From: a virus
Virus record (IMG/VR): IMGVR_UViG_3300037083_000054
Coordinates: 1 to 64,000 of that record
DNA: 64,000 nt
Reading direction: 5' to 3' (one strand)
The notes below the pieces were generated by a model. That model saw only the letters and a program-made list of their open reading frames with translations. It searched no databases and was not told where the DNA came from. Positions 7,885 through 62,847 of the stretch are shown in pieces; position 1 is the first letter of the stretch, and each line of letters starts with the position of its first letter. The translations under genes were made by a program, and so were the position numbers.

Positions 7885-9806
7885 CCGACGATTCATGGAT
7901 TGAAGACGCCATCGGGTCGGCCATTGATTATTCGGAAGCGGATCTGAACCCCGAAGTGCCAGTTGTTCCGAAGTTGATTCCTATCGTTCCGAAACCCGGC
8001 GGCACGGGATTCTTTCAATTACGTCCCTATCAGGAAGAATGCGTCGACGCGGTTTATCGCACTTGGCAGACTTATCAGTCGTGCCTAATGATTGCCCCAA
8101 CCGGGACCGGCAAGACGTGCATGCTTGCCGAAGTCGTGTTGCGTTGGCCAGATGATATGGGTCGAGTTCTTGTTATTGCTCATACGGAAGAATTGATTGA
8201 TCAGGCTGCAGAAAAAATCGGGATTCATTTAGATGAAGCAACCGGCATTGAAATGGGAGAGAGGAAAGAGTCAATTCATCCAGGAATAATGGGGCACCGA
8301 CCCAAGGTCGTGGTGGCTTCGATTCAAACTCTCTCACGACCAAAGCGACGAGCAAAACTGGACGGTCAGGTCGGGCTAATTGTATATGACGAAGCACATC
8401 ATTCCGTTTCGAAATCGGCTCGGGCTGTGCTGACTTATTTTCTCTTGCAAAATCCGCAATTGAGAATTCTTGGGCCGACAGCAACTCCTCAACGCGGGGA
8501 TAAAAAAGCTCTCGGTGATGTGTACGAATCGGTCGCCTATGAAATGAATCTTGTCGATGCGATTGATGAAGGATGGCTCGTTCCTATTGAGCAAAAGATT
8601 GTTGTCATCGAAGGATTGGATTTCAGTAAGTGCCGTAGTTTTGGCGGTGATTTAAATCAAGACGATCTTGCGACGGTCATGATGGGCGGATCGTCTTCAG
8701 TCATCGAAGCAACGTCAGAATTGACGCCAGTCCAGATTGAGCAGATTCAGCAACAGGAAAAAATGATTCATGCGGTCGTGAAGCCAACGATCGAGGAATC
8801 TCATGGGCGTCCAACAGTCGTATTTTGCGTGACAAAAGCTCACGCGAGATTGATGTGCGAAATCTTCAATCGTTATTTGCCATTTTCAGCAGAAGTCATT
8901 ACAGACGACACGCCAAAAGAAGATCGTCATTTGATTTTGAGAAAGTTCCGATCGGGGCAATTCCAGTTTTTGCTCAATTGCTCCGTTCTCAGTGAAGGAT
9001 TTGATTCGTTAGTCGATGTGATCGTCAATGCGGCACCTACGAAGTCCATCAGTCGCTATATGCAACGTATCGGACGTGGGACTCGCCCGCTGCCGGGAAT
9101 TGTTGATAAATGGAACACGGCAGAAGAACGCAAATGGGCGATTTCTGTTTCTGCGAAACCGGCAATGTCCGTGTTAGATTTCACGGGCGATTCTGGCAAG
9201 CACAACCTCATTACAGCCGTGGACGTTTTGGGGGGGGAATACGAAGAAAATATTATCGAAGCGGCGAAGGCTCGCTTGCGAAATGGCGATACCGCCGATG
9301 TTCAAGATGTTCTCGAAGAAATTGAACAGGAGATTGAGGACGAAAAGAAAAAAGCCCAAATGGAGAAAGAGGAGCGGGAGCGACTCGCCAAGGAACGTGC
9401 AGAAGCCGAGCGAATCAAACACGCAGCCGAAGCCTCACGCCGGGCATCCGTGAAGGCGGAAGTCCAATATCGCACTCAGGCGGTTGGCTTGTCGGGAGCG
9501 GTGGTTCCGCAACAGATTGGCATCGGCATGCGTCGGGGTGGAGCGACGGATAGTCAGGTCAAGTTTCTGATCCGATTGGGGATTTCGCATGAAAAGGCGT
9601 GCGAGTTCACGAAGGGGCAGGCGGGGGCGGTGATTGACAAGTTAAGTCAGCAGACGGGATCGAAGTATATCTTTCGGTTTGGGAAATATTGCGGGAACGA
9701 AATCGGTAAGTGTCCGACCGGTTATTTGAGTTGGGCCGCAGAGAATTTGAACGACCCAGACTTTAAGCGGAATTATCAAATGATGGTCCAAGAAAAGGTG
9801 TCGTGA
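7881..9806 (+). CDS. SF2 DEAD/DEAH-box helicase
   Basis: Q motif LRPYQ, Walker A APTGTGKT, DEAHH, TAT, SEGFD, QRIGRGTR. Confidence 0.92.
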   Translation: MTDDSWIEDAIGSAIDYSEADLNPEVPVVPKLIPIVPKPGGTGFFQLRPYQEECVDAVYRTWQTYQSCLMIAPTGTGKTCMLAEVVLRWPDDMGRVLVIAHTEELIDQAAEKIGIHLDEATGIEMGERKESIHPGIMGHRPKVVVASIQTLSRPKRRAKLDGQVGLIVYDEAHHSVSKSARAVLTYFLLQNPQLRILGPTATPQRGDKKALGDVYESVAYEMNLVDAIDEGWLVPIEQKIVVIEGLDFSKCRSFGGDLNQDDLATVMMGGSSSVIEATSELTPVQIEQIQQQEKMIHAVVKPTIEESHGRPTVVFCVTKAHARLMCEIFNRYLPFSAEVITDDTPKEDRHLILRKFRSGQFQFLLNCSVLSEGFDSLVDVIVNAAPTKSISRYMQRIGRGTRPLPGIVDKWNTAEERKWAISVSAKPAMSVLDFTGDSGKHNLITAVDVLGGEYEENIIEAAKARLRNGDTADVQDVLEEIEQEIEDEKKKAQMEKEERERLAKERAEAERIKHAAEASRRASVKAEVQYRTQAVGLSGAVVPQQIGIGMRRGGATDSQVKFLIRLGISHEKACEFTKGQAGAVIDKLSQQTGSKYIFRFGKYCGNEIGKCPTGYLSWAAENLNDPDFKRNYQMMVQEKVS

Positions 9807-9807
9807 T

Positions 9808-10221
9808 ATGGACAGTCATCAGGCTCTCGGCATCATCGCAATCGTCGCGTCCAAATCGAAGGATTTGAATCCTAACGACTTTCCGGGGATGTCGGATGAA
9901 ATCACTCTCGCGATGGCGAAGCCGCAGGAAGCGTTGAAATCGGCCTTGGAGACGGCGTTTCAGATCGACTGGGATATTCAACCGCTCTGGCCGTTTCTGA
10001 TTGCGAATGCGAAAGAACATTGTCGGAAACTGAAGTTGAAATCGTCGGTTCGCCAGATGAAGCTGGATATCGAATGGGCGTTGAAAGTTATGAACAATCA
10101 GGAAATTACAGACCTGCCTCAAACGACAATTGATAAGGCGAGCTTGATCTTGCAGCGAATGTGCGAAGTGGCAATGGGAGAGTTTCCAGTGATGAAGGAC
10201 GAACAGTGCGGAAGCCCCTGA
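9808..10221 (+). CDS. Hypothetical protein
   Basis: Abuts helicase, same strand. Confidence 0.55.
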   Translation: MDSHQALGIIAIVASKSKDLNPNDFPGMSDEITLAMAKPQEALKSALETAFQIDWDIQPLWPFLIANAKEHCRKLKLKSSVRQMKLDIEWALKVMNNQEITDLPQTTIDKASLILQRMCEVAMGEFPVMKDEQCGSP

Positions 10222-10724
10222 CAAAATGCGAAGTCACGCAGGATGAGATGAAGGCGATTCTGGCGAATCCGTCGCTGCTGAACCGTGTCGGAATAGCGAA
10301 AAATAAATCAGCGACTGATGTTCTCAAACAAGAGAAAATGAACCAAAGTGCTGCCAATCTTGAAGTCAAGGCATTATCGAAATCAGAAGGCCGTTACGGA
10401 AAACGGCACGTTGACGGGGAAATGAATCGGACGGAGGAATCGTATGCCGTTCGTCTAGAAGAACGTCGGTTGAAGGGTGAGATTCTTGGTTGGTGGTTCG
10501 AGGCAGTGACGTTTAAATTCGCGGAGGATGCTCGATTCAAAGGCGACTTTCTGGTACTTCTGGCCGATCTCACAATTGAAATCGTGGACGTAAAAGGAAG
10601 CGGCCCAATCAATGAGGCATCCACCGTGCGAGCGAAAGCGTGTGCGGATAAATTCTGGTTTCTGACGTTTGTTCAGGAAAAGAAACTGCCGAAAAATGCG
10701 GGTTGGGAACGAAAGGTATTTTGA
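10161..10724 (+). CDS. PD-(D/E)XK endonuclease (DUF1064-like); start uncertain
   Basis: MNRTEESYA..LE...WWFEAVTFK...GDFLV...IVDVKG. Confidence 0.7.
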   Translation: MRSGNGRVSSDEGRTVRKPLTKCEVTQDEMKAILANPSLLNRVGIAKNKSATDVLKQEKMNQSAANLEVKALSKSEGRYGKRHVDGEMNRTEESYAVRLEERRLKGEILGWWFEAVTFKFAEDARFKGDFLVLLADLTIEIVDVKGSGPINEASTVRAKACADKFWFLTFVQEKKLPKNAGWERKVF

Positions 10725-10913
10725 TAATGGAGATCCAAGATAATCAGAATCCGCCAATCCTGAATCGAATTTTCAAACAGCTTCGTGACGGGAAAACTCG
10801 TTCATGGCATATCAAAAATGATCTATGTCCGGAATGCGGTGGCGAACTTGATACTGGTTGGGAGTGTAATGATTGCGGATTTGACGCCATGCCAGAAGTG
10901 GAGCAAATGAGGA

Positions 10914-11177
10914 ATGATCAACGATAATAAAACACTTGGGGAACTGCTCTTCGACAGTTTGTACGGAGTCGACATCCTTGACCGTTCCATTGAACGCAAT
11001 GGATGGATCGGAACCTATGAGGACGATAAAGCGACATTCGAAGCCGCAGCGAAAACGATTCAAGAGCGAGTGATGGATCGGGTCTGGAAAGCGATCGGAA
11101 TCTGTTCGGATACTTTGGATGATGACGAAAGCGGAGCATGTCTAAGACGACTTCAGGAGGCATTAAAAGATGAGTGA
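10914..11177 (+). CDS. Small phage protein ((T/S)LG(Q/E) family)
   Basis: KTLGELLF N-terminus shared with 11170, 28276, 33055, 33859 ORFs. Confidence 0.6.
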   Translation: MINDNKTLGELLFDSLYGVDILDRSIERNGWIGTYEDDKATFEAAAKTIQERVMDRVWKAIGICSDTLDDDESGACLRRLQEALKDE

Positions 11178-11430
11178 CAAGAAATCCCTGGGCCAGCTTG
11201 CTTTCGAAGCGTGGGCTGAATGGCACATTCGAGAAGATCGAGAATGGAGAGATCTTTCAAGCACTGAGGAAACGATTTGGGATTCGACAGCTGGTGCCGT
11301 CCAGGAGGCAGTAATCGAGTCAGTCATCGAGGAAATCATGTCTCTGCGACAGGAGTTTGCAGCGAACGGGTCCTTTGACGGTTGCGATGCATGCATGCGA
11401 CTGTTGCAAAAGATTCGCGATGAGAATTAA
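11170..11430 (+). CDS. Small phage protein ((T/S)LG(Q/E) family)
   Basis: KSLGQLAFEAW...WRDLS; AGGAGG upstream. Confidence 0.6.
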   Translation: MSDKKSLGQLAFEAWAEWHIREDREWRDLSSTEETIWDSTAGAVQEAVIESVIEEIMSLRQEFAANGSFDGCDACMRLLQKIRDEN

Positions 11431-11761
11431 TTATTGTGGGAACATATTGAACAAGGGGCTATCAGATGAATGAGTGTCGGCCACAGTCGGCTACGATATT
11501 GTGCGGGTGTATATGCGGCATGATATTAATTTTCCTGATTGCTTGGATTGATGCGTCAGTGAGTGGGTCTAGTATTGTGTGCGCCCAAGTCACACCGCTG
11601 AAATCCGATAGCCATACAAAATTATCTCGTTTCCGAGTGCGATCTCTCGGAAACGAATGGACGGCGGAAGATTGGAGTTTCGACAAAACCGGCGGATTTC
11701 TGGAATTCAAGTCGAGAGGGAAATGGGTCTATCTCCATGCGGATTTTGTCATTGAGGAGCA

Positions 11762-12118
11762 ATGATGAAAGATCCCACATTTGCCCCGTCCTATTGCTGT
11801 CTCTATCCGAAACTAGCGGCGATTGCTCGATCGCATGGCTATGCCTTGGCGGTTCACGGATCATTACAACGTGATTTCGATCTCGTCGCTGTTCCTTGGA
11901 CGGAAACCGCTTTAGATGCCAGAACGCTCTACGAAGCGATTGCGAATGAATGCTCGCATGACGGGCCGAGCGAATCCGCCAAATTTGTGGATGGGCAATG
12001 GGTTTCCGTCGATCTGCGAGAACCGGAATTGAAACTGCACGGCCGATTGTGTTGGACGATTATTTTGCATCATACGGCCTTCATTGATCTATCGGTAATG
12101 CCGCGAGTTAGTCAATAA
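11762..12118 (+). CDS. Conserved phage protein with nucleotidyltransferase-like GS..RDxD motif
   Basis: GYALAVHGSLQRDFDLVAVPW; GAGGAG RBS. Confidence 0.6.
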   Translation: MMKDPTFAPSYCCLYPKLAAIARSHGYALAVHGSLQRDFDLVAVPWTETALDARTLYEAIANECSHDGPSESAKFVDGQWVSVDLREPELKLHGRLCWTIILHHTAFIDLSVMPRVSQ

Positions 12119-29269: not shown

Positions 29270-30577
29270 TTACTGTGATGCCAATTCTTTTTCCATTTCC
29301 TCAATTTCAAGATCTGCGACCCAAGCGTCGCGAGCGTAAGACACCGGTTTTGTTGGTTCGATCGTTTTGTTGTCGCCCCAGAAAATTGGCTCGATCCCAA
29401 GTTCGCATTGTTCTTGAATCAGGCAACAGAGATTGTGAGCGATCAGCTTGCACAAAACCTCATTGGTCATGGCGACCAAGTTTTTGCTGCGAACAGCGTC
29501 GCCGAACTTTCTTTTGACCATGCTGAACGTACTTTCGACGTTTGATCGACGATGATAGTGAGCGAGGTATTCATCCTTTTTGAATTCGAAATAGTGCAGC
29601 ATCTTCTTGAATAGACCACCGACTGATCCAGTCGCATTGTCCTTGAACGCGATGAATGCTATCCCACCGAGATTAGCGACAGTTTCGAAGTTCTCCAGGC
29701 TACTGTATGCCTTGTCCGCCGAGACTTCTTCAATCATGAACGTCTTGCCAGTCTCTTTCACGAGTGGTTCAAACTGCGGGCAATCTGCCGAGTTCTGATC
29801 CATGATCCGAACTGCTGTCACGCAATTCGTTTTGATTCCGCAGGCGATGTGACATTTGATCCAGACGTGCTTCAGTTTCGTCACCCCATACTTCGCGTCA
29901 TACCAGCGTTCGAACTTATTTGTCGAGAATCCGCTGCTGTCGATCGCAAATCGAGTCTCGACCACTTTCAATGGTGCGGCACTCTTGCCGACCAGGGCCG
30001 TGAGAAATGGCGTCAACGCGGGGTTCTCCATGAATGCTGTCGTTTTCACGCCAGGAATCGGTCGCGAGATAAATCCTCGTGCTTGTGCTTCTCGCAAGTC
30101 GGACGAAAACCGTCGACTGCTGAGCGTGGTATAGACCTTGAAGACACAGGCGAAAATCGAATCACGAACTGTGTGCGGTTTCGGCCCTTTTCTCCAGAGT
30201 TCGCGTTCTGGTTCTTTTAATCCCCTGCACAGATCGTGCAGCAATTCCTGTACTCGGTCCTTTTCCATGCTCTGAGCCTTATTGTAAGCCGCCCAGTTTT
30301 GCTTGTAGGTTGTTTTCTTGGTCAGCGTGATGCTCTCGGTCTCTGTCACGCTCCCATCGGGATTAAACTCGCGTTTGGCAGTAATTTCGACGGCATATTG
30401 ATGCTTGCACTTGAAACCGTTCTCCGAATGGTCCGGACATGTGCAGGTCTTTTTGACAGGATCGACGCGGTAAATCGTATTGGCATTTGATTGTGAAGGA
30501 ACCAGCCAAACATTCGACATTCGGTTCAATTTGCACACGGCAGCGATGATCAATCCGCGTTGTTCTCTGGCATCCAT
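29270..30577 (-). CDS. DDE transposase (IS4/IS5 superfamily) with N-terminal SWIM Zn finger
   Basis: CTCPD...CKH (SWIM); AIDSSG, SADKAY, YHRRSNVESTFSMVK (YREK signature). Confidence 0.9.
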   Translation of the reverse strand: MDAREQRGLIIAAVCKLNRMSNVWLVPSQSNANTIYRVDPVKKTCTCPDHSENGFKCKHQYAVEITAKREFNPDGSVTETESITLTKKTTYKQNWAAYNKAQSMEKDRVQELLHDLCRGLKEPERELWRKGPKPHTVRDSIFACVFKVYTTLSSRRFSSDLREAQARGFISRPIPGVKTTAFMENPALTPFLTALVGKSAAPLKVVETRFAIDSSGFSTNKFERWYDAKYGVTKLKHVWIKCHIACGIKTNCVTAVRIMDQNSADCPQFEPLVKETGKTFMIEEVSADKAYSSLENFETVANLGGIAFIAFKDNATGSVGGLFKKMLHYFEFKKDEYLAHYHRRSNVESTFSMVKRKFGDAVRSKNLVAMTNEVLCKLIAHNLCCLIQEQCELGIEPIFWGDNKTIEPTKPVSYARDAWVADLEIEEMEKELASQ

Positions 30578-43030: not shown

Positions 43031-43849
43031 TGACACGATTATTCCTGTTTCTGAATCTCTTCAGTATGCCACCACTCTCGAATCAATTGATCGCCGCTTC
43101 GACGGACAACATAGAATCCTTTTGTCGAATTGTAGGGTCCGACAATCAAACCTTTGATTCCGGTCAGATGCGTGACTTCGCCTTCGATTCGATGATAGGA
43201 CGATTCATTCCAAGTTTCCGGAGAAGGATCAATCAATCGAATTTCTTGAACCACAGGTGAAGTCAACTGAATCTCTCCCGAGAAGAGATACCAGATGCCT
43301 AAACCGATGATGGCAAGCGAAAAACCGATTTCAGCATTGCTGGGCGAAGTTCTCATCTCGGATTCCAATCAGTTTGAAGCCGCTCGCCGTTTGTCAATAA
43401 ACGCATCAATCGCAGCCGTTGCTGCATCCCAAATGCGACCGACGATTTCCACTCGCTGTTTGCTCATCGCCCAACCACTGAAGTTCCTCGGGCGTGATTT
43501 CCAGCCGCATCATTAAGATCTCTTGGAGAGCGAGATCACTCAAGACGATCGCCGTGCAGTGATTGCAGAGGTCGTGTACTTCGACGAGTTCTCGAATATC
43601 TTCTGCCAACGCCTCCATGTTGATGGCGTTTTCTTCGCTGTTTTCGTGGTTGTGACTTTCCATTCATCCTCACCCATTATCGCCGGAGATTCGTTGACTA
43701 TTCGGATAACGCGAGAACATCATCGTCAGATCATGATTTTTATCGGAATTCTGGCAAAAAACAGGAAATCGCATCCATTCAGATCACGACCATCTCTCGC
43801 GGGCGACGGATGCCGTTTTTCGCGAAAATCATCTATGCCCCTCGAAAAA

Positions 43850-43870
43850 ATAAATAAGCCGCTTATTTAG
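43850..43870. promoter_or_regulatory. Palindromic operator copy 4
   Basis: ATAAATAAG-CCG-CTTATTTAG between terL and the downstream - strand run. Confidence 0.8.
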
Positions 43871-43890
43871 TTGTCCAGTTGTTTGTCCAC

Positions 43891-47877: not shown

Positions 47878-48062
47878 GGCTTTGCACGTTTAATCCCGAA
47901 TAAAAGTGCAGACGGACCCGAACGGCGAATTAAACGTGCATGCCAAAGGATCTGACAATTGGCGATTATCCGGATTATTTCATTGAAGTTTCTGAATTTG
48001 CAACAGACGTTTTCGCTGCGGCCTTCGCGGCTTTCATGGCTTTAATCTTTTCTCGATACCAG

Positions 48063-48467
48063 TCAGGTATCTTGTGCGTCGTCACAGGCGGAAAGGGAAT
48101 CGTTTCTTTTGAGCAGATGCTTTCTGAGACTGGAAATTCTTCGAAAACGAGCTCCAAACTCCCATTCACCAGTTTTAATGTCCAGTGCGACATAATTCAT
48201 CTCTTCGGTTTCGCAGTGATCAAAATATCGGAGCAGTTCGTCTAAGTCCTTGATGGCAGCAGGTTCATATGTGCCGACAGTTGTCCATTCGTCACGCTCG
48301 GCGATGAATTGCTTTGCTGCCATCTCGCTGGAAAACAATGGAGCGGCATTTTGGATCTCTTCTGGCGAGAGAACAGCCAATATCCCCCTCCATCCCGCGA
48401 CAATATCGACAGGAATCCAAATAGGATACGTAATGTCGATATCATCGTTTTCATGGATTGATTCCAT
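48063..48467 (-). CDS. Tn-B cargo, hypothetical protein
   Basis: Start preceded by GGGAG inside conserved hairpin. Confidence 0.6.
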   Translation of the reverse strand: MESIHENDDIDITYPIWIPVDIVAGWRGILAVLSPEEIQNAAPLFSSEMAAKQFIAERDEWTTVGTYEPAAIKDLDELLRYFDHCETEEMNYVALDIKTGEWEFGARFRRISSLRKHLLKRNDSLSACDDAQDT

Positions 48468-48579
48468 TATGCGAACTCCCGATTGACTACGTACCGGGAG
48501 TTGCTACCATGCCATCGCCATAACCGCATGGTTCTCCCAGAGAACAAAAGAACGCCAGCAATCCCCATTGCTGGCGTTT
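48468..48579 (-). ncRNA. Conserved four-hairpin inter-cargo element (copy 1)
   Basis: Colinear homology with 56008-56121. Confidence 0.6.
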
Positions 48580-48618
48580 ATCATTTTCCAAGATTCATTC
48601 TGAACTGCAATGGCAGAT

Positions 48619-49125
48619 TCAGATTGATCTCTCGGTCTCAATTTTGACTGTCGACATCGTTGCCCAGACCATCAACAAGATCCATACGATGCCGGTCCAC
48701 GCCAAACAGAAGTTCAGAATCAGGATCGGAACCAGATTCCGATGTGCTCGTAAATAGGCGATTATGGACGGCAAGAAATGCAACAAGATTAAAGCAACAA
48801 TGGCAACTGATCCAAATGCCGCGAAAAACACGGCGCGAATTTTGTCGTCGGCCAATGTCTTATTGTTCGCAAAAATCCCCACGCACATTACGACAAACAA
48901 GAGTGCAGTAAGAATCGCAGAGCCAATGACGATAATTTTCCCTTGTCCGTTCTTCGTCCAATAAACTGAAGAATGATCCGATTTCTGGATGATAATTGGT
49001 TCTTCTTTGTCGGCATCACACCTTGGACACACGGTCATTTTCGATGTGTTTGCCGTTGCCGGTATTGCGTAAACTTTACCGCACGACGGACAGGTCCATT
49101 TTTGACGTGACGCACCTGAAGACAT
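48619..49125 (-). CDS. Tn-B cargo, Zn-ribbon membrane protein with superinfection immunity (T4 Imm-like) domain
   Basis: WTCPSC..CPRC; HFLPSIIAYLRAHRN..PILILNFCLAWTGIVWIL.MVWA. Confidence 0.8.
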   Translation of the reverse strand: MSSGASRQKWTCPSCGKVYAIPATANTSKMTVCPRCDADKEEPIIIQKSDHSSVYWTKNGQGKIIVIGSAILTALLFVVMCVGIFANNKTLADDKIRAVFFAAFGSVAIVALILLHFLPSIIAYLRAHRNLVPILILNFCLAWTGIVWILLMVWATMSTVKIETERSI

Positions 49126-49158
49126 GATCTCTCTTTCGTCGTGTTGAGTGTTGAGCAG

Positions 49159-49215
49159 AAAAGACGCATCGGATGCTTGTAAGACTACCGATGCGTCTTG
49201 CTGAGATTCAAGCGA
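49159..49215 (-). terminator. Transposase terminator overlapping a putative cargo promoter
   Basis: AAGACGCATCGG/CCGATGCGTCTT hairpin with U tail on - strand; TTGAAT-N18-TAGTCT. Confidence 0.6.
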
Positions 49216-49220
49216 TGCGT

Positions 49221-50438
49221 TTACTTCGCGAATGCAGGTTCGATACCTAGTTCGTAAAACTCACTGATTAGGCAGCAGATGTTATGTGCCAAAACCTTAC
49301 ACAGAACTTCGTTTTTCATGGCGATTTCGGTCTTGCTGCGAACTGAATCTCCGAACTTGCGTTTTACCATTGAGAATGTGGATTCAATGTTACTCCGCTT
49401 GTGATACGACTGAAGAAACTCCTCACGGTACAAGCTGAAGAAATGAAATGCCTTGCCAAACAATCCACCGATGCCGCCTGTAGTTCCCGAACGAAACGTG
49501 ATGTATGGCTCGGCCCCGAGAGCATTGATGGCTCGGAAGTTCGATTCGCTCGCATACTGAGTGTCGGCACTCACTTCCTTAACGTCGAAATTCTTTGCGG
49601 TTGTCTGCATGAGTGCTGGCAGAAGTGGTGAATCATTCGCGTTGCGGTCAAGGATTTCCACAGCCGTGATGACATTCGTTTTCACCCCGCACACGGCATG
49701 CAGCTTGACCCAAGTATGCTCAGTCCTGACTTTTCCATATTTATGATCGAACCATCTAATGAACTTCGACGATGTGAAACCTGATGAATCAACCGCAAAA
49801 TCGGTTTCAACGCTTTTGAGCGGCAAACTGGATGTCTGGATCAATTGAACAAGATGTTCCGTCATTTCTTCATCTTCTAGCGCAGTGCTGATCGCATTGA
49901 AATGCGGTGTTCGTTCGATATACCCCTTGTACTTCGCATCGTCCAGATCGCACATAAATCTTCTCTGGCTGACAGTGCTGTAAACCTTGAAACAGGCCAT
50001 GAATATGCAGTCAGACATGGGAATTCGTGGGCGACCGCGTCCAGGCGTCGCTAAGGGTGCCTTGACGTTGTCGCACAGCGATCGCAATAGCGACTGAAAG
50101 TGATCTTTCTCGCTCGTCTGCGCCTGATTGTATTCCGCCCACATTTGAGGATATGTCGGACGTTTGACGGTCGTAGAAATAGTCACTTCCTCAGTCGTTG
50201 TCTCAGTGCCGTCCGCGTTCTGCTCGCGTTTGATGACATATCGGACGGCGTAAATGTGCTTGCACTCTTGACCACGTTTTTCGAAGTCCGGGCAATTGCA
50301 ATAGGGCGTTTGCTCATCTGCCACGACGGTGTATTTGCCTTCGCCTGTCTGACTGGGGACGATCCACACTTGTCCTTTTTGCACAATTCGACTTCCGGCA
50401 GCGATCGTAGCACCACGTTGTTCTCTTGCTTCGCACAT
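49221..50438 (-). CDS. DDE transposase with SWIM Zn finger (homolog of 29270 gene)
   Basis: MCEAREQRG start aligns with MDAREQRG; CNCPD..CKH; AVDSSG, SADTQY, YHKRSNIESTFSMVK. Confidence 0.9.
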   Translation of the reverse strand: MCEAREQRGATIAAGSRIVQKGQVWIVPSQTGEGKYTVVADEQTPYCNCPDFEKRGQECKHIYAVRYVIKREQNADGTETTTEEVTISTTVKRPTYPQMWAEYNQAQTSEKDHFQSLLRSLCDNVKAPLATPGRGRPRIPMSDCIFMACFKVYSTVSQRRFMCDLDDAKYKGYIERTPHFNAISTALEDEEMTEHLVQLIQTSSLPLKSVETDFAVDSSGFTSSKFIRWFDHKYGKVRTEHTWVKLHAVCGVKTNVITAVEILDRNANDSPLLPALMQTTAKNFDVKEVSADTQYASESNFRAINALGAEPYITFRSGTTGGIGGLFGKAFHFFSLYREEFLQSYHKRSNIESTFSMVKRKFGDSVRSKTEIAMKNEVLCKVLAHNICCLISEFYELGIEPAFAK

Positions 50439-50442
50439 GACT

Positions 50443-50558
50443 TGCCTCTTTTTCTGTTGAGGCATTCCCGATAGAATCGCAATTGCTATGTCGCGGATTG
50501 GCGGGAACGCCAGTTTGTGATTCGCCCCGGTTTCGATTCGCAGTCGATTCCGGGTTTT
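50443..50558 (+). ncRNA. Structured transposase leader / putative antisense RNA (copy 2)
   Basis: TGCCTC/GAGGCA RBS hairpin, GGCATTCCCGATAGAAT..GCGGGAACGCC, terminator hairpin 50526-50558. Confidence 0.65.
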
Positions 50559-50571
50559 CCTTACGCATAGT

Positions 50572-50638
50572 ATTGTACGGACATAATTATCGGAAGTCAA
50601 TAAGAAACCATTGACAAAAATAATTTTGTCCGTACACT
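50572..50638. promoter_or_regulatory. Divergent sigma70 promoters with operator inverted repeat
   Basis: - strand TTGACT-N17-TACAAT; + strand TTGACA-N16-TACACT; TGTACGGACA / TGTCCGTACA overlap both -10 boxes. Confidence 0.8.
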
Positions 50639-50644
50639 TCCAGC

Positions 50645-50902
50645 ATGCACGAAAAACGACCAGGAAGACCGCCAAAGTCAGGCGTCGCATTCGGAGTTCG
50701 CATCGAGATTCGAGCGACGGACGAAGAGCGAGACCGCATCGACAAGGCGGCGAGCATTGCCGGTAAAGAGCGATCCGAGTGGATTCGTAGCACGCTGCAA
50801 TTAGCGGCGAATCAGACAATTGAAGAACATGATTCACAACCAGTGTTGAAAATGACGAAGAGATCTGTAAAATCAAAGAAGACCGGCCATGCTGGAACAT
50901 GA
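50645..50902 (+). CDS. Ribbon-helix-helix-like regulator (DUF1778/MobA-like), probably leaderless
   Basis: RPGRPPK..IEIRATDEERDRIDKAA....RSEWIR; ATG 6 nt after -10. Confidence 0.8.
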   Translation: MHEKRPGRPPKSGVAFGVRIEIRATDEERDRIDKAASIAGKERSEWIRSTLQLAANQTIEEHDSQPVLKMTKRSVKSKKTGHAGT

Positions 50903-51183
50903 CCGGCTTCGAGAGAAAAACGCCAATCTTCGGGATTGGCACCGATGGCATCCTGCCATCACCTGCTATCCGTCGAGGAACAGCCTGTCATTGCGGCAAA
51001 TTGCCGTCTTGTCAGATCGAACCAAAACGGAAGCAGGCCATGAAGCCATATGGCTTGCATGGCAGTCCTCCTGAAAACCGAGCGATTGGATTATCTTGGG
51101 TTCTAAGTCAAAGTACCCAATCCTCGGTCACTGAGGCACCACTATCCACAGTGGCCCGGATGTCGCCTCGTTTGGCATCCGGG

Positions 51184-51533
51184 TTATTTCTTCGCTTCCT
51201 CTCCACTCCATTTCCCGTCCGGGAGCTTTCTGAAGTTTTTGTCGTTCAGCGTGGTATTGACAGTTCCCTGCGGAATTCCTGATTTGGCGATAACGTCACG
51301 ACGCAACATCGGCCCCTCTTTAATCAAAAACTCTCTCAATTCTTGAACCCTAGTCTTTCCCGCAGTAGTGGCATTGCCTGCTGGCGTTTTATTGCCTCCG
51401 CCTGCCGGAGTTTTCTGATTCGACCGGGGCGGTTTTGAAGTAATTCGCTCAATTGCTTCTGCACCGAGCATTAATTCCTCCACTGTCGTTCCGATTGCAA
51501 TCCAGCCATTTTCTGTTTTTTGAATTGATGCCA
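51184..51533 (-). CDS. Tn-B cargo, small protein with C-terminal winged-HTH-like region (start uncertain)
   Basis: LREFLIKEGPMLRRDVIAKSGIPQGTV...F..LPDGKW. Confidence 0.55.
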
Positions 51534-51783
51534 TACAAGTCCCCGCGATTCTGTTCCAGACGTCGATAATGACAATACTTATGAATGGTATCGACCATAA
51601 CGTAAAAAGCAATAGCGCAGGGAACGACCATAATTTGGTCATGCGTCCATATTGCCTGAAAACGAAAAAGGCCCGGAGATCCGCAGATCACCGAGCCTTG
51701 ATAAGTTTGAGAAAGCCCCCGTCAGTTGATTAAAAGTGCAGAACTGCGATTATTCGTGCAAGTGCCATTAAACGTGCAAAGCC

Positions 51784-52316
51784 ACCGCACCAGTGGCAAA
51801 AGAAATCAGAGCGACTGCCCGCATGATGGGGAATCCGAGGCCCGCGACGGTGGTTTTGACTCGTGGGAATTCCAATTGGTTCTCAGCAGTATCCGGCATT
51901 GAGAGTGTCGTACCGTCAGCCAGGAACAGTTCACGGCCTCGCCAGTGCCAAGCATTGTCGGCAGTACCGTGAACGCTGCATCCGATTTCCTTCGCAAGTC
52001 GCGACATCACTTGAAGAGGGAAGCGACTGCGGGCGTCGGCATAGCTAGCGGATGACGCTGAACAGGCAGGAAGTCCATTCGCCACGCGATGAGCCAGAAT
52101 CCGGCTCACAGCTTCATTGAGCGATTTATCTTGACTGAGACACTGAGACAGCCACGCCCATAGAGTGACCAGCGGGCAAAACACTCGTTGACGATATTCG
52201 TGCCCTTCATCTTCGAGAACACCGACAACATGGTCGCGTTTGAGAAGTCGTCCAAATGGAAGCCCGTCATCATTTGCAAATGTGTCACGAACTAAGCGGA
52301 AGTCTTTTCTGCTCAT
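51784..52316 (-). pseudogene. N-terminal fragment of IS4-family transposase, cut by Tn-B
   Basis: RQRVFCPLVTLWAWLSQ, SYADARSRFP, WRGR.LFLADGTTLSMPDT, GFP; homology ends at the Tn-B TIR. Confidence 0.88.
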
Positions 52317-52320
52317 CTGA

Positions 52321-52440
52321 TTCGCCTTTTCTTCAGGGCGAACCGTGATAGAATGCTGTTGTGATACGGGGCATTCTGGCGGATTCGCTGGTTTGAACTG
52401 GACCCGGTTTCGACGCCAATTGAAGCCGGGTTTTTCTTTT
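52321..52440 (+). ncRNA. Structured transposase leader / putative antisense RNA (copy 3)
   Basis: TTCGCC/GGCGAA hairpin over the RBS region, GATAGAATGC..GCATTCT helix, terminator CCCGGTTTCGA/TTGAAGCCGGG + T run. Confidence 0.62.
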
Positions 52441-52491
52441 GTCAGGTCGCCAAACCCAACGCATGAAATAATATCAATCCTCTGATTTATT

Positions 52492-52542
52492 GTCCAGACA
52501 AAAAAACATTCGAATTGACAAATTTTTGTCTGGACGTAATAT
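52492..52542. promoter_or_regulatory. Promoter and operator inverted repeat of the IS4 element
   Basis: GTCCAGACAAAAA / TTTTTGTCTGGAC; TTGACA-N16-TAATAT. Confidence 0.7.
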
Positions 52543-52551
52543 GTCGGAATC

Positions 52552-52749
52552 ATGAAGCACAAAACTGATCCACTGAAGCGGGGTCGATCGTCGACCGGGC
52601 AAATGCCGATGAAGTATTTCAGGATTGCGGACGAAGACTGGCAACAGATCGAATCTGCGGCCAGTGCGTCCGATGAAACGACTTCTGAATACATTCGCCG
52701 AGTCCTGTTGAAAGACTCGGCCCGCATTCTCAAGAAAAAAGATGCCTAG
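52552..52749 (+). CDS. Ribbon-helix-helix-like regulator
   Basis: KRGRSS..KYFRIADEDWQQIESAA....TSEYIRRVL. Confidence 0.75.
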   Translation: MKHKTDPLKRGRSSTGQMPMKYFRIADEDWQQIESAASASDETTSEYIRRVLLKDSARILKKKDA

Positions 52750-53203
52750 ACTTCACCGCCCTGGAGATTTAATCTATGCAACCGATCAGGATGCCTGTTA
52801 TTGCTCGGTATTGCAGACGTGACAGATATTCCCAGAACCAGTAAACATACCGCGATCCTTGCAGAGCAGACATTTCTGTCCCTTCCTTGTTTTGCTTGTT
52901 TGTGGAGTGTCAGTAGAGCGTCAAACCACATCCGAGCGAGTTGCTGGGGATAAAACGTAAGAGACAGTCATCAGGCCCCAACCTGATGACTTCTTTTTTT
53001 GGAGGACTCCAAAAACTCAATGGACGATTTCATATACAGGACCGTTTTCAAAAGCGAAAAAGATTCTTTCAATCTCACTTATCCGCCCATTCAACCTACG
53101 CAAATCCAAAAGCAGAAAAGAGACAAGGCCCCGCCAAGTTATCGATACTTGACGGGGCTCATTGTTTCAGAGTTATTCAGATGAGCAATCGCAGTTGCCA
53201 TGT

Positions 53204-53258
53204 GTGTTCGCGCGAACACTTTCTTGCGCGCGAACACTTTGTTCGCGTTTTGTTCGCG
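53204..53258. repeat. Cluster of direct and inverted GTTCGCG / CGCGAAC repeats
   Basis: GTGTTCGCGCGAACAC palindrome, then CGCGAACAC, GTTCGCG x2. Confidence 0.7.
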
Positions 53259-53957
53259 CTATGGGTTGTATCGACCGCGTGCTTTGAGCATGCGAAGGCT
53301 CGCCAGTAGTCGCTTGGCTTTAGTGTCGCTTCCTAATGTTTCTCCCGTAAATTCACGAGCGGTTTGATTTTGGCTTTTGCCGCTTCCCTTGTCAGAGTTC
53401 AATCGAATGGCGAGATCGCGAATATCAGGATTATCAGGAATTCCTTTCGGGAACATTTTGTGAGTGTTCGCGTCGATGGCGATCTTTTGTGCAGCCAACT
53501 CAATGCCAGCATTCAGAATGTCATCAATTGCTGAGGACGGAATTGGATGAAATGTATATCCATACCGATGAATGCGATGAGATTCGTAACATGCGACTGA
53601 TGACCGCACGACATGGCTGACCCAAGGTAATTTCAGAAGTTTGCGGAACAAATGCGCGAGACGTGACGTAGGATAGGAAACTATGATTTGCGAATGGATT
53701 GATCGCAGCAGACTCGCCATTGTCTGCAATGCGGGTATGTTCGCAATTGCTTCGGCAAGACTCGGCTCAGGATTTGTATTCAGAAGCCCTGAAAACAGAG
53801 ACGATTCCCCGGCAGTAGAATCCGCATCCAATTCTCGTTCGTCGTCCACGGTAAACAACCATTCTGCCATTTCTGGTGGATTGCCTTGTGGATGAAAATA
53901 CTGCCTTAGGTGAACGGCCAATTGATGCAACTCTCCGACCAGAATATCTGCCGTCAT
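53259..53957 (-). CDS. IS4-element cargo with C-terminal HTH-like region
   Basis: GKSQNQTAREFTGE...AKRLLASLR. Confidence 0.6.
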   Translation of the reverse strand: MTADILVGELHQLAVHLRQYFHPQGNPPEMAEWLFTVDDERELDADSTAGESSLFSGLLNTNPEPSLAEAIANIPALQTMASLLRSIHSQIIVSYPTSRLAHLFRKLLKLPWVSHVVRSSVACYESHRIHRYGYTFHPIPSSAIDDILNAGIELAAQKIAIDANTHKMFPKGIPDNPDIRDLAIRLNSDKGSGKSQNQTAREFTGETLGSDTKAKRLLASLRMLKARGRYNP

Positions 53958-54431
53958 TGCGCTGCCCGATCATGCCTCAACCTTGATAATAAGCCATATG
54001 GAAAATCTTCATTATCAATATTGTGATTTGAATTAGACTGCGAAAGCAAACGATCGTCTCTCTGTCGAAAGCATTGTTTCCCAAGATTGAGAATATCACA
54101 TTGTGATTTATCTCGGTCTCGTCGTCATCGCCTTGAATCCTGCTCCGCCGAAGCGGTAGTCTGCTGTCGATTGAGAGAGTTCGTTTAGTGATTAGGAGTT
54201 TTGACGTGTGGCCGATTTGGTCACTAATGACATTGTGAATTGACGCGTGTGCGTCTCTGCTTCGCCGAAAATCCGCCAACTTGGACCGCCTATGGTTCTT
54301 GAAATGGAAGCAGTGCTTCGACCGCGCTCCCGCAAGGGAGCGTCGGCGTGGTGCTGTTCCGTTTCATCCCTTGGCGGGGATTCGGCGAGCGGTCCTGTCG
54401 ACGCTCTTTTTCGTTTTCGGGGGCCAGATCA

Positions 54432-55952
54432 ATGCAACGATTTGAATGGACCTGTCCAGGATGCCAGAAGAAATTCAGTGTTCCCACACTTGAAGGGTTG
54501 ACCCTGTGTCCTGCCTGTCAGCCGTTCAAGCTTGATACGTCTCAGTCGCCACCGAGCATTAAGCGTGTTCAGAAAAAACAAACCACTTCCCTGCTTGCTT
54601 TGACTTCCTGTGTGATTTTAATCCCTGTCATTATTTGGCAATGGCATCACCTGATTTCATCAGGGAAACTCGCTGAGATTGCTGCGATTTTCCCCGCAGA
54701 AGACATCGGGAAATCTCCGGTTCGAAAATGGCTGAAAGACAATCTCGATGATGGGTCTTGGGAAGAAGTGAAATGGTGGCCAACGATTCCCACTCAAACA
54801 CTCTATAACGCCAATGCTCTGCGACTGCTGGAACATATCGAGGAACAAAAGAGTCGATTCGAGAGAGGTCTTCCAACAAAGCATGACGCTCTTGCCCATT
54901 GCAAAGCTCAATTAGACGCATTTCAAGTAGCTGGAGTTCGTCATTTTTGTGCCATCAAATTTCGAACAAAAAGCCCCTTTGGAGGAATGGTTCTTCAGAC
55001 GCGAACATTTGAAATTCGTGAAAGAGAGGCCATCCCACTGAAAGCCGATCGGATTGTGGAGCAGGATATTCGCGATGCGGAAGTCATCACTCATGATGTT
55101 TGGGATTTTCTCAATAACTCTGAATACGACCCTTCGCCGCAGCCGTTCCCCTTGAAAATCACTGAACGGATTCGCACGGCCCTTGTCTGGAAGAAGCCGA
55201 AAAAGAAAGAAGCAAAAGAGGAAAATCCGGAGCCAATCGTTCAGCAGGAGCGAAACATTCGCCCGCGCCCGATGCAAGTCCAAATGCCAGTTGAACAAAT
55301 TGAAATTCCTGAACGGAAGCCACATCAAATCGTCAAAAACGACCCGCCAATGGAGAAGCCACCGGAACTACAAAGTGGTGTTCCGAAGAAGGTTCGCGAA
55401 TATTTCGAACGAAGCAATGAATTGAAAAACAAACAAAAAGAATTGGAGTCTCAGAGCGACAAACTGGAGTCCGCAATCAAAGGGGCAGCACCCGCGAGCA
55501 AAAATATTTTGCGTGACAAGCTGACGACAGTCAATAAATCATTAGTGGAACTCAAAAAGTTGAAGTTCATACCATTCATGCCGTCGTCGCCGGAATTCGG
55601 CGATATTGGTTCGTTCAGGGCAATTGAAGTGCGGGCAATCTTTAACGATGAAACCGCCATTATCGCATGGTCCCCGAACGGATATTCACCAAATGGCGAA
55701 TTATTGAATCCGATCTATCACTTGGTTGTCACACCAATTGACGCGAAGCAGGCGAAAGTTGGTAAATCGGCTGTGAATACCGATCTCTTCCGAATCACGG
55801 CAAGTCGCGAAGTTCCTCTGCCTATTATGAATGATGACATGGTTAAAGCCGTCTATGATGCGCCTCTCATGTTCGTGGCCGAACCGGTCAAGAAATACGA
55901 GATCGAACAATATCGCGAACAGTACCAAAAAGAAAACACTAAAAAGAAATAG
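54432..55952 (+). CDS. IS4-element cargo, Zn-ribbon membrane-anchored protein
   Basis: WTCPGC..CPAC, TM helix, large C-terminal domain; start re-picked at 54432. Confidence 0.7.
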   Translation: MQRFEWTCPGCQKKFSVPTLEGLTLCPACQPFKLDTSQSPPSIKRVQKKQTTSLLALTSCVILIPVIIWQWHHLISSGKLAEIAAIFPAEDIGKSPVRKWLKDNLDDGSWEEVKWWPTIPTQTLYNANALRLLEHIEEQKSRFERGLPTKHDALAHCKAQLDAFQVAGVRHFCAIKFRTKSPFGGMVLQTRTFEIREREAIPLKADRIVEQDIRDAEVITHDVWDFLNNSEYDPSPQPFPLKITERIRTALVWKKPKKKEAKEENPEPIVQQERNIRPRPMQVQMPVEQIEIPERKPHQIVKNDPPMEKPPELQSGVPKKVREYFERSNELKNKQKELESQSDKLESAIKGAAPASKNILRDKLTTVNKSLVELKKLKFIPFMPSSPEFGDIGSFRAIEVRAIFNDETAIIAWSPNGYSPNGELLNPIYHLVVTPIDAKQAKVGKSAVNTDLFRITASREVPLPIMNDDMVKAVYDAPLMFVAEPVKKYEIEQYREQYQKENTKKK

Positions 55953-56007
55953 CACGTTTGTGATATTGGCAAGAGATTGCAAGTTTTCCGAAATGATTCA
56001 CAATGCA

Positions 56008-56121
56008 AAACGCCAGCAACGGAAATTGCTGGCGTTGTTTGTTCTCGTTGGGAGAACCGTGCCGAAATGGTGTCAGCATGGTAACGACTCCCGATTTGTT
56101 TTCAAGATGGGAGTCGCATCA
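56008..56121 (+). ncRNA. Conserved four-hairpin inter-cargo element (copy 2)
   Basis: Colinear homology with 48468-48579. Confidence 0.6.
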
Positions 56122-56475
56122 ATGTTTCTGGTCATCGACAAAAACGATCACTTCATATTCCTTCAAGCCGACCCGAGCATGGAGGAGAATTTTCATCTGA
56201 CTGTCGTGAAAGATGTAGAAATTAGGTGGGATATGAAACCATACGGAAATGGATTGTGGCCAGACTCTACCGAACGATCAGTTCGAATGGGAGAAACCGG
56301 ACAGAATCCCAACAATCGAAAGCAATATCGTTATTTCAAGTGTCGCGATGATTTAATTGCGGCTGGATATGAAATGGTTGATAAAACTCACGCGATCAAG
56401 GAACCTCCACGTGAAGCGGCTTCGTGGTCGGAATATCTGAAACAATGCGAACAGCGGGGTGAGTCCACCACATAA
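56122..56475 (+). CDS. IS4-element cargo, hypothetical protein
   Basis: ATG preceded by GGGAG in conserved hairpin. Confidence 0.6.
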   Translation: MFLVIDKNDHFIFLQADPSMEENFHLTVVKDVEIRWDMKPYGNGLWPDSTERSVRMGETGQNPNNRKQYRYFKCRDDLIAAGYEMVDKTHAIKEPPREAASWSEYLKQCEQRGESTT

Positions 56476-56810: not shown

Positions 56811-56879
56811 TGGATGATGTAGGATTCGAACCCACGCCGCAGGATTTACATCCCCGTTCTACCGCTGAACTAATCATCC
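56811..56879 (-). tRNA. tRNA-like gene with shortened anticodon arm (GTA/Tyr or TGT/Thr, ambiguous)
   Basis: Acceptor GGATGAT/ATCATCC, D arm GTTC/GAAC, T arm GTGGG-TTCGAAT-CCTAC; anticodon region GGGGATGTAAATCCT is non-canonical. Confidence 0.65.
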
Positions 56880-60987: not shown

Positions 60988-62773
60988 ATGAGCACAATCC
61001 GAGAGCGAATTCGTGGTGCGGTTGACTTGTATTCTTTTAATACAAACGAGAAGCGTGATGCTGATGGAAGATGGGCTTCCAGCGGCGATGCTCATTCGGA
61101 AGCCGAGCGAGCGAATTCCGTGTTCAGGAAGCATGAGCAACCGACCGCTTCTGCGTCCGTTGACGAGGATGGTTCGTACAAGGTCGAGCATCCCACGCAT
61201 GGGGAATTGACTTCGAACGAGATTGATAACCTGCATTCCGCCGCATCGGATGTCGATCGAGCCAACAAAGTGCTCTCGAAGCACGGCCATGAACCTCTGG
61301 CGACAATCGGCGACGACATGCAGACAACGCACGATCCTGACAACCTCGAAGATGCGAGCGATGAGGTCAAGCGAGCCAATAAGGTCTTCGAAAAGCACGG
61401 ACTGCCGGATCGAGCGAATCTGGAAAATGTGAGTGGTATGTTCGGCGATTACAACTCGTCAGTGGACGCCGACGAACTTGAGCAAGCCGACGCGGATCAC
61501 GAGAAGGTCAAGAGGATCTTCGAAAAGCACGGGATTGACCCAAAGCATTCCAGCATCACAAACGCGAACGGTTCGTGGGAGTCAAAACACAATCTCGACG
61601 ATATTGAGTCCCTGCATCAGGACATTTCGCGGGCCAACAAACGATTGGAAGCGATTGGGTTGAAACCGAATCTGAAGATGGCGATTCAGTTGGGGGAAGC
61701 TTACTCGCCGCATGATCTGGATGAAATCAATGACGCGATCGACGTTCTGAAGAAGTTCCGAGACAAGGAACGATATTCACGCCGCGAGGATCTATCGTCG
61801 ATTGTGCGGGCCAAATACGTTCTGCGGGATTTCGCGATTGACCGCTATGCCGAAGGTCACTGGATTACAGTTGAGCCATCTGGGACGCATATTGAGCTTG
61901 ATGGCAAAGGAAACGTTCTCAAAGGTCCGAACATCAATAAAAGTCCACACGGAACGCTTCCGCCTCCTGCTAAACCAAAAGTTAAGACTCCTATTCAAGA
62001 TCCAATGTTGCGAGGAACAACGCCGCTTCCGCCTCCTGCTAATAAGAAATTGCCGCCAGTTCCCGGACAAGAACCGCCATCCGCTCCATCATGGTTCAAA
62101 GGCGGCAAGAAAAGCGAAGTTTCCGCTCCCGGAAGCATGACTCATCGTTTGCGATCGGCAATGGAAAATCATGTTCACTCAGTTGTCCAGCCGAAGAAGG
62201 ATGAACACTTTGCGGAACATGCCCCCGAAGAAAAGGCAGCCTCCCAAATGACTCCCGATGAGCATCTCCGCAAAACCGTGGAAGACATCAAAAAGCGACT
62301 TGCCGCAAGCGTGAAGCAAGCGGTTGCCTCGCCATCAGCCGAGAAGCCCAAGCCGAAAAAGCTGACGGCCCAGATTGATCCGGAAACGACGAAAGCGGCC
62401 TTTGCTCCGAAAGCCAAACCGGAAAAGAAACCGGAGATGCCGAAACCGCAGTCGGTCGCTCCTGCCGCTCCAACTCCGCATACCGATTTCTCGCAAGATC
62501 GACTCGCTGTCAATCGAGCGAAATCAACAGGCGATACAGAACAAGCGAAACAACTTCAGTCCGTCTTGACGAACAAAATCGCAGCGGCAATGGGAATCGT
62601 TCAGACGTCAGCGAGTGCCATCAATGACTTTGAAGCACGGCTGCGGAATGGGGTCGCGAACTACGCGAAACGCAAGTCAGCGGTTGGCCAATTGGATCTG
62701 TTTTCCGGCGAGACTCGATCATCATCCAAAACACAATCGCACTTGGATTGGGACGAGAGTAAGCATCATCGGG
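60988..62773 (+). pseudogene. Large multidomain head-associated protein, interrupted by Tn-C
   Basis: VDLYSFN..KRDADGRW, internal repeats, ERYS, DRYA-EGHWITV, cut at WDESKHHRG where the TIR starts. Confidence 0.7.
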
Positions 62774-62847
62774 GGCTTTGCCCATTTAATGGCACTTGCC
62801 CGAATAATGAAAGGTCTGCCCGTTTAATCGGTGCATGAAAAATTATC

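Follow-up and report, generated by a model that had tools for sequence, protein, structure and literature searches.

The mobile element IS10 (RNA-IN/RNA-OUT) and phage P22 (sar/ant) each use a short antisense RNA that targets the 5′ end of an mRNA. Integron attC cassettes typically lack promoters and have a structured repeat between them. Phage morons are self-contained accessory transcription units with their own promoter and terminator; a common conserved leader or antisense partner is not part of their definition. Here we describe a structured element repeated in the virus record IMGVR_UViG_3300037083_000054 (122,834 base pairs, bp), the first 64 kb of which form the stretch analysed, hereafter the window. 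The element consists of a promoter-like block and four hairpins, H1–H4, the last of which pairs the Shine–Dalgarno (SD) sequence of the open reading frame (ORF) that follows. The balance of evidence tips slightly towards its being a portable promoter, leader and antisense control cassette of about 150 nucleotides (nt) for small mobile-element cargo genes in Schlesneria-type planctomycetes and a phage.

As in IS10 and P22 sar/ant, two predicted promoters face each other, here about 100 bp apart, and the copies could cross-regulate; unlike in IS10, the element lies 3′ of transposase genes and would control a cargo ORF, and the predicted antisense RNA does not cover the SD. The likeness to attC is that of a structured repeat with many different neighbours, but this repeat has a predicted promoter of its own, and both the G–U asymmetry of its pairs and its SD and ATG content point to an mRNA. 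With morons it shares the setting of accessory genes in a phage with their own predicted promoter, and one neighbouring gene encodes a protein with a superinfection-immunity domain.

Excerpts of PMC5668327 describe tisB/istR-1, dinQ/agrB and zorO/orzO as pairing an inhibitory structured 5′ untranslated region (UTR) with an antisense RNA that binds upstream of the SD, the binding in dinQ/agrB being said to favour an SD-sequestering fold; such type I systems are stated, in an excerpt of PMC12390103, to be known only from Proteobacteria, Firmicutes and Tenericutes. The element described here likewise has a lengthy folded 5′ UTR, with the ribosome site buried in the predicted structure, and its predicted antisense RNA pairs upstream of the SD. 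It differs from type I leaders in that the predicted RNA is a true cis-antisense transcript from inside the leader, and in that the ORFs are varied, the commonest being immunity-like. The PeSLs of T4-like phages, as excerpted from PMC4122927, consist of a terminator stem-loop followed by an early promoter and flank variable ORFs. The present element is also a small conserved composite of stem-loop and promoter, repeated in a phage beside variable ORFs and likely an exchange point between unrelated sequences; unlike in a PeSL, the promoter precedes the hairpin and is followed by an SD-sequestering leader of about 80 nt with an antisense promoter, the unit is shared with transposons of the probable host, and the two have no sequence relation.

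A repeated leader with four hairpins

The original prediction described two colinear four-hairpin stretches, at 48579–48468(−) and 56008–56121(+). Sequence comparison, shuffled controls and a covariance model bear this out: the stems are as described, pairwise identity is ~75–82% and the flanks are unrelated. Both copies are real, but their number and extent had been set too low. The conserved block begins ~45 nt further upstream, at 48613 and 55974, with its 5′ edge a few bases from the stop codon of the preceding gene and its 3′ edge at the start codon of the next ORF, and the record holds exactly four full copies, on which BLAST and the covariance model (R1) agree. We refer to them by position as the 48k (copy 1), 56k (copy 2), 67k and 114k copies. 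R1 scores them at 144–169 bits and the next match at only 19 bits; this candidate fifth copy, at 53028–53191(−), was rejected as an unrelated terminator-like hairpin. The pattern of H1 occurs twice in the window and in none of 100 shuffles. Across the whole window, a tRNA alone passes the gathering threshold of Rfam 15 and the element matches no family; at permissive E-values its best score, driven by H1, is 25.6 bits for Esr41, against a cut-off of 102. At least 17 further copies are found in Schlesneria-type planctomycete genomes, and 21 copies from 17 loci were aligned. We conclude that the element is genuine, structured and regulatory, and that it had not been filed before.

On the gene strand, the order is promoter, 3–4 nt, H1, H2, H3, H4 and start codon. 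The hexamers of the candidate sense promoter, which is sigma-70-like, have 7–8 of 12 consensus matches in nine of nine homologues, and none of the 21 aligned copies departs from the −10 pattern nAnAAT. Because the gene upstream of the 114k copy is divergent, this copy would need a promoter of its own. A conserved promoter block with no other evident reason for conservation makes the sense promoter plausible. H1, with the arms AACGCCAGCAA and TTGCTGGCGTT followed by CTTTTGTT in copy 1, has, taken by itself, the GC-rich stem and T-rich tail of an intrinsic terminator. An SD-like GGGAG sits in the 3′ half of H2 plus its loop, and the core at the H2–H3 junction, GAGAACCAUGC, is highly conserved and nearly invariant. 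The SD held by H4 is, in copy 1, a GGGAG 8 nt upstream of the ATG at 48467–48465. An outer TGC/GCA helix and a small hairpin in the promoter block, both proposed by RNAalifold, were dropped because they lie upstream of the inferred transcription start.

The sense leaders of the four phage copies fold with z scores of −2.4 to −6.1, and the hairpins are recovered from single sequences. In all four, H4 pairs the SD in the minimum-energy fold, and it covaries; the inhibitory mRNA structure hiding the ribosome site that marks type I systems is thus present here. In an alignment of nine copies (A7), 92.8% of cells are paired, compared with 83.6% in column shuffles, and 11 of 28 pairs show double changes; none of 500 shuffles reaches the observed values, and slid partners pair at 26–38%. 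With 21 copies (A9), 93.4% of cells are paired, double changes occur in 13 of 28 pairs (57 cells), the covariation score is 0.320 as against 0.130 (0 of 500 shuffles) and slides pair at 32–40%; the sequences are related, and the paired percentages are inflated because the model guided both alignments, a point that counts against our reading of the element. Compensatory double changes affect 8 of the 11 pairs of H1 in the 21 copies, and 97% of the cells of H3 are paired. H2 stands outside the alignment model and is still present where the region exists, in the variants GTTCGC/GCGAAC, GTTTCC/GGAAAC and GTTCCC/GGGAAC. All four hairpins show compensatory changes.

The kind of mismatch tells the strands apart. 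Cells of H4 contain 16 G–U and 2 A–C combinations on the gene strand, and H4 is therefore a sense-strand structure, that is, part of an mRNA leader. H3 is neutral in this respect (3 G–U, 2 A–C), whereas H1, with no G–U and three A–C, folds at least as well on the opposite strand. The stems covary, the SD is buried in the four phage folds and a start codon at a constant place closes the unit, in line with the cis-regulatory RNA of the original prediction; this half of our reading is well supported.

A second pairing is available to the leader. Folds constrained to leave the SD open pair the anti-SD with the GGGAG of the H2 region and enclose H3 in 12 of 17 full copies, and in copies L182 and L175 the SD-like motif of H2 changes jointly with the anti-SD (GAGAG with CUCUC). 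Together with the conserved H2–H3 junction, this could describe a signal-responsive riboregulator, in which a ligand, a protein or temperature shifts the RNA between a closed form (H2, H3 and H4) and an open one. We consider such a switch very improbable, as the open fold is the less stable one in every copy, the Rfam comparison gives no match, no conserved internal loop or bulge is evident that might form a pocket, and the downstream genes have no common pathway.

A predicted antisense promoter and RNA

Beyond the original prediction, the analysis brought to light the upstream promoter block and a conserved antisense promoter candidate. A promoter scan flags TTGAC(T/G) or TTGAAA, 16 nt and TACCAT at an identical antisense site in all four phage copies, and a match to 8–9 of the 12 consensus positions, with a spacer of 16–17 nt, stands at the same place in nine of nine homologues. 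Copy L175 has indels in H4, yet its 16-nt antisense spacing is intact. The antisense −35 is the complement of a conserved GTCAA in the loop of H4, and the −10 is the complement of AUGGUA, made up of the 3′ side of H3 and the unpaired UA linker. Among the unpaired letters, the conserved ones are the linker UA and the last three of the H4 loop, CAA; on the opposite strand they read as the TA of the −10 and the TTG of the −35, and the RNA fold alone does not explain their conservation.

The antisense promoter points at H1, which is terminator-like on both strands, and an antisense RNA of 71–80 nt is therefore predicted; the prediction of promoter plus terminator extends to nine of nine copies. 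In the 48k, 67k and 114k copies, the antisense reading of H1 gives a 13-bp stem and, after it, UUU(A/G)UCAUUUU. The scan gives 13 antisense pairs in these three copies, compared with 12 and 11 sense pairs where a sense stem is listed; it lists H1 on the sense strand in three of the four phage copies and on the antisense strand in three of four. The predicted RNA would have a single-stranded 5′ end, H2′, a linker and H1′ as a terminator with a U-rich tail, and its folds have z scores of −3.9 to −5.4. Action of this RNA on the start of the transposase gene was considered and rejected, with duplex energies at background (fractions of 0.64 and 0.83 of random windows are at least as good).

Several results weigh against a promoter, leader and antisense cassette. 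Promoter-like hits number 1–3 per region, where 1.7–2.5 are expected from shuffles, which leaves position and conservation as the whole argument, and since the copies are homologous, their shared hexamers are not independent observations. At least five of the eight letters after H1 are T in 11 of 20 copies on each strand, so the U-rich tails do not favour an antisense terminator. The sense promoter scores under the threshold of the promoter scan. Partial copies exist, with the promoter and H1 alone, without H1 or without H4, and the whole unit is therefore not always required. The SD-open fold costs +1.4 to +12.7 kcal/mol relative to the closed one, and 5′ truncation was rejected as an 'on' switch, since it left H4 closed in all seven copies tried. 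Two metatranscriptome runs gave nothing for the stretch, and both transcripts are predictions. We accordingly word the antisense half of the reading as a conserved prediction.

The structural evidence as a whole fits equally well a purely cis-acting leader, in which the element's own promoter and four-hairpin 5′ UTR damp translation, no antisense RNA is made, and TTGACT and TACCAT are kept for reasons of the RNA, such as contact of a loop or linker with a protein or with another part of the RNA. The pairing of H3 forces part of the −10-like TACCAT, and a total of promoter-like hits at chance level agrees with this explanation. It sits poorly with three observations: the most conserved unpaired letters are exactly the TA and TTG of the two hexamers, the 16–17-nt spacing is kept in nine of nine copies despite the length change of H4 in L175, and the H1 stem, by reading of the sequences, is longer on the antisense strand in three of four phage copies. 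On this evidence we find a leader acting in cis alone unlikely, and prefer the cassette with an antisense RNA.

Cargo genes, mobile DNA and probable host

The start codon lies 4–5 nt before the end of the model in 15 of the 21 copies, and the ORFs behind it, 63–263 amino acids (aa) long, fall into at least nine unrelated groups. Seven belong to one family (LFT), two are membrane proteins, two are zinc-ribbon proteins and seven are singletons, while three copies have no ORF; membrane-protein ORFs lie behind the 114k copy and behind L199, L202 and L183. This is the cassette behaviour that had been predicted, with different neighbours joined at a fixed breakpoint.

The LFT family has 256 relatives at E ≤ 0.001 in a library of 1.84 billion proteins. 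The LFT ORF has no Pfam match, and Pfam DUF2750/Imm16 gave no match at the gathering threshold for two ORFs of the record; among ten LFT relatives scanned, one reached 26.2 bits, against a cut-off of 27. The LFT profile matches the uncharacterised PDB entry 2z0r (E 1.5e-5), and the nearest clusters are named SseB N-terminal or DUF2750, at 0.93 for language-model features and TM scores of 0.63–0.79 for the predicted fold (Atlas model). DUF2750 is listed in an excerpt of PMC3482391 as the predicted immunity protein Imm16, present in planctomycetes too. From these model-based comparisons, the commonest downstream family appears to resemble SseB/DUF2750 (Imm16) immunity proteins rather than toxins.

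This likeness argues against a toxin, and the suggestion of the original prediction that a toxic gene is kept silent is not upheld. It counts equally against a type I toxin–antitoxin-like addiction module, in which an ORF harmful if over-made would be held off by leader and antisense RNA and released on loss of the element. Such a module would explain why the two-layer design matches that of tisB/istR-1, dinQ/agrB and zorO/orzO in the excerpted account (PMC5668327), why some ORFs are membrane proteins and why the element is located on transposons and a phage. ORFs of 63–263 aa in at least nine families are, however, unlike the small hydrophobic toxins typical of the class, and the downstream ORFs matched no toxin or defence profile in PADLOC or Pfam, which makes an addiction module distinctly improbable.

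Both genes upstream of the window copies begin, as had been noted, with a WTCPxC zinc ribbon. The further claim that the two copies lie in the cargo of two transposons holds for one of them: the 48k copy is inside transposon A, 3.9 kb long (47878–51783) and composed of a left end, the SWIM–DDE transposase gene, the zinc-ribbon/superinfection-immunity gene, the element, an ORF and a right end, but no transposon ends were found around the 56k copy. The 67k copy has the same placement inside a second, diverged transposon (transposon B, 62770–68135). The 48k and 67k copies, and a copy on contig G001:C71, all lie inside SWIM–DDE transposons one ORF from the right end, and the 114k copy precedes a lone right end. 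Elsewhere, an IS4-like transposase gene ends 9 nt before the element in L179 and, by eye, in G127:C88, and an IS1-like one ends 0–4 nt before it in L180 (4 nt) and, by eye, in L200. Inverted repeats of ~42 bp enclose the element and its ORF in L179, and one copy is, by eye, in a prophage-like stretch. The idea that the element is an intrinsic part of SWIM–DDE transposons was rejected, since among loci with relatives of the transposase it occurs in only 1 of 39 from genomes and in none of 5 from viruses; it is therefore cargo.

Flanks that differ at fixed boundaries, five copies within 8 kb in G127:C88 and, in L181, a transposon-end-like motif that abuts the 5′ edge of the element might also be expected of a site that acts as DNA, either an attC-like recombination site for cassette assembly, as first proposed, or a preferred insertion target of transposons. 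Core pairs of attC (RYYYAAC...GTTRRRY) occur on either strand in 0 of 21 copies, integron integrases not having been searched for. The boundaries are those of a −35 hexamer and a start codon, and what is conserved includes the SD and ATG. Terminal repeats enclose the element, which is not at a junction, in transposons A and B, G001:C71 and L179. The attC-like junction does not stand up to these findings, and a role as a DNA site is scarcely probable.

The relatives were reached through the SWIM zinc finger and DDE transposase adjoining two of the copies, whose closest relatives, at 75–76% aa identity, are on contigs titled uncultured Schlesneria sp. One Schlesneria-titled contig (G001:C71) carries the element in the same transposon architecture, and the transposons are 70% identical between phage and Schlesneria. 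The shared element and these transposons make Schlesneria the probable phage host; the DNA runs containing the window are labelled peat metagenome. A terminase search found no close viral relative, with known phages reaching only 24% identity, to P22-like terminases. Within the genus to which G001 belongs, model R2 finds the element in 11 of 33 genomes; within the family, R1 with stricter filters finds it in 6 of 101. In a sample across the phylum it appears in 2 of 151 genomes, one of which is the starting genome G001 and the other a marginal match of 30 bits. The exact pattern of the H2–H4 core occurs in no viral contig and in one metagenome contig, which the model rejected; a looser 14-base pattern occurs in more than 113 viral stretches, 80 of which were scanned with R2 and gave no match. 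The distribution is narrow and patchy, not that of a host-wide repeat, and the objection of a common host repeat without a mobile link does not apply to an element that is sparse and located beside transposases, prophage or defence genes.

Other features of the mobile DNA were recorded alongside. Further transposon ends, each with two or three TGCMCGTTTAAT-like sites and with GCAAAGCC at the terminus, are present at 62770–62830 of the window and at 65413–65478, 68070–68135 and 115495–115560 of the record, and transposon B has a second, internal right end directly 3′ of its transposase gene. The SWIM–DDE_Tnp_1 transposase of transposon A has two diverged paralogues, at 29270–30577(−) and at record 64195–65463(+), the three sharing 49–73% aa identity. 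A truncated IS4-like element at 51784–52999, with 72% nucleotide identity to L179:6686–7348, is cut exactly at the left end of transposon A, which suggests nested insertions. Positions 5565–13314 of L198 (G127:C88:9000–28000) contain two full and three partial copies of the element, with small ORFs and transposases of the IS4-like and IS1-like kinds in between. In L199 (G125:C220), the copy is preceded by two large genes, at 7149–11805(−), that look BREX-like by eye, with BrxL-like and PglZ-like N termini.

Around the 56k copy, an intergenic block at 54006–54112 is conserved (72% identity) at record 66488–66593, in each case upstream of the gene that precedes the element, the 67k copy in the second case; through this shared block, the 56k unit mirrors the cargo part of transposon B. 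The block may be the first element to which the original prediction alluded. The 56k cassette ORF is followed, after ~340 nt, by a tRNA gene (56811–56879(−), Rfam 50.7 bits). At record 114103–114432(−), the gene that diverges from the 114k copy has an N-terminal signal and transmembrane part 80% identical in nucleotides, in inverted orientation, to 66739–66860(+), which belongs to the C-type-lectin gene that precedes the 67k copy. Both ends of the record (window 1–394, record 122596–122834) carry arrays of a 27-bp tandem repeat, 92–98% alike, and the record may represent a circle or concatemer opened within the array. A block of ~56 nt centred on the hairpin AAATAAGCCGCTTATTT stands beside the terminase gene at 43817–43872 and, inverted, at record 119226–119281. 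A second DNA run is identical over the stretch and contains no excision joints.

Table 1 Coordinates of the element and neighbouring features (window positions unless marked as record)
Feature	Position	Strand	Basis
Copy 1, whole module from promoter to start codon	48462–48613	−	R1 169 bits and alignments
Copy 2, whole module	55974–56126	+	R1 144 bits
Third copy (67k), full, beyond the window	record 67438–67598	+	BLAST and R1
Fourth copy (114k), full, beyond the window	record 114537–114696	+	BLAST and R1
Candidate sense sigma-70-like promoter, copy 1: −35 TTGCAG (48610–48605), 16-nt spacer, −10 GAAAAT (48588–48583)	48583–48610	−	read from sequence
Candidate sense promoter, copy 2: TTGCAA-16-CACAAT	55977–56004	+	
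H1, copy 1: GC-rich hairpin of 11–13 bp, terminator-like on both strands	48551–48578	.	scan lists both strands
H1, copy 2	56009–56036	.	terminator scan
H2, copy 1: GTTCTC/GAGAAC	48531–48545	−	
H3, copy 1: ACCATGC/GCATGGT	48506–48532	−	
H4, copy 1: anti-SD ACTCCCG pairs CGGGAGT; SD GGGAG 48480–48476	48475–48501	−	
Copy 2: H2 56041–57, H3 56056–82, H4 56087–114, SD 56109–56113; ATG 56122	56041–56114	+	
Candidate antisense sigma-70-like promoter, copy 1: TTGACT-16-TACCAT with TG extension	48483–48510	+	promoter scan
Candidate antisense promoter, copy 2: TTGAAA-16-TACCAT	56078–56105	−	promoter scan
Predicted 71-nt cis-antisense RNA, copy 1, putative ends	48517–48587	+	fold −26.4 kcal/mol, z −5.4
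Predicted 72-nt antisense RNA, copy 2, putative ends	56000–56071	−	z −4.4
Downstream ORF, 134 aa, LFT family (SseB_N/DUF2750-like)	48063–48467	−	
Downstream ORF, 117 aa, no relatives behind other copies	56122–56475	+	
Upstream cargo gene: WTCPxC zinc ribbon and superinfection-immunity domain PF14373 (E 4e-14)	48619–49125	−	
Upstream gene: WTCPxC zinc ribbon and transmembrane segment, 534 aa, no Pfam match	54348–55952	+	
Transposon A, right-type end: three TGCMCGTTTAAT-like sites, terminating in GCAAAGCC	47878–47944	−	
SWIM zinc finger and DDE_Tnp_1 transposase, transposon A	49221–50438	−	
Transposon A, left-type end	51728–51783	+	

Proposed mechanism and meaning

The model set out here builds on what was computed, namely the family and its boundaries, four covarying helices, SD sequestration in predicted folds, the strand of H4, hexamers on both strands, varied ORFs and the link to mobile DNA; from there we infer both transcription starts, the antisense RNA with its ends and every regulatory effect. 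A weak sense promoter of sigma-70 type (TTGCrG, 16 nt, nAnAAT) would start the mRNA at the foot of H1 and so place a stable hairpin at its very 5′ end. The anti-SD ACUCCCG of H4 would hold the GGGAG ribosome site and keep translation low by default. A stronger antisense promoter of sigma-70 type (TTGACT, 16 nt, TACCAT), formed by the H4 loop and the 3′ side of H3, would fire towards H1, whose terminator would stop the transcript and leave an RNA of 71–80 nt. This RNA would be a full complement of the opening ~75 nt of the mRNA (H1, H2 and half of H3) and, together with head-on transcription, would lower expression of the gene still more. Because it would cover the SD-like GGGAG of H2, it would likewise close off the only other fold in which the ribosome site is free.

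A bolder version, about which we are doubtful, would have this sense/antisense cassette move as a unit among three transposon families and the phage. It would be the first antisense-RNA gene-control module described in Planctomycetota, its copies cross-pairing as a network, akin to multicopy inhibition, that senses cargo copy number. The core shared by H2 and H3 is nearly invariant, so the antisense RNA of any copy would pair with the leader of any other. If so, the cell or phage would register how many copies of mobile cargo it carries and turn all of them down at once, and recombination through the shared homology would be able to exchange cargo genes at the start codon.

Post-transcriptional control in Planctomycetota is, to our knowledge, almost uncharted. 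The element is a compact, covariation-supported RNA structure, common to a phage and its probable host genus, that would combine a promoter, an SD trap and an antisense promoter. In this form it would show mobile elements carrying a ready-made expression unit, onto which unrelated small genes for immunity-like, membrane and zinc-ribbon proteins are grafted at the start codon, and it may thus bear on how accessory and immunity genes spread and are cheaply carried.

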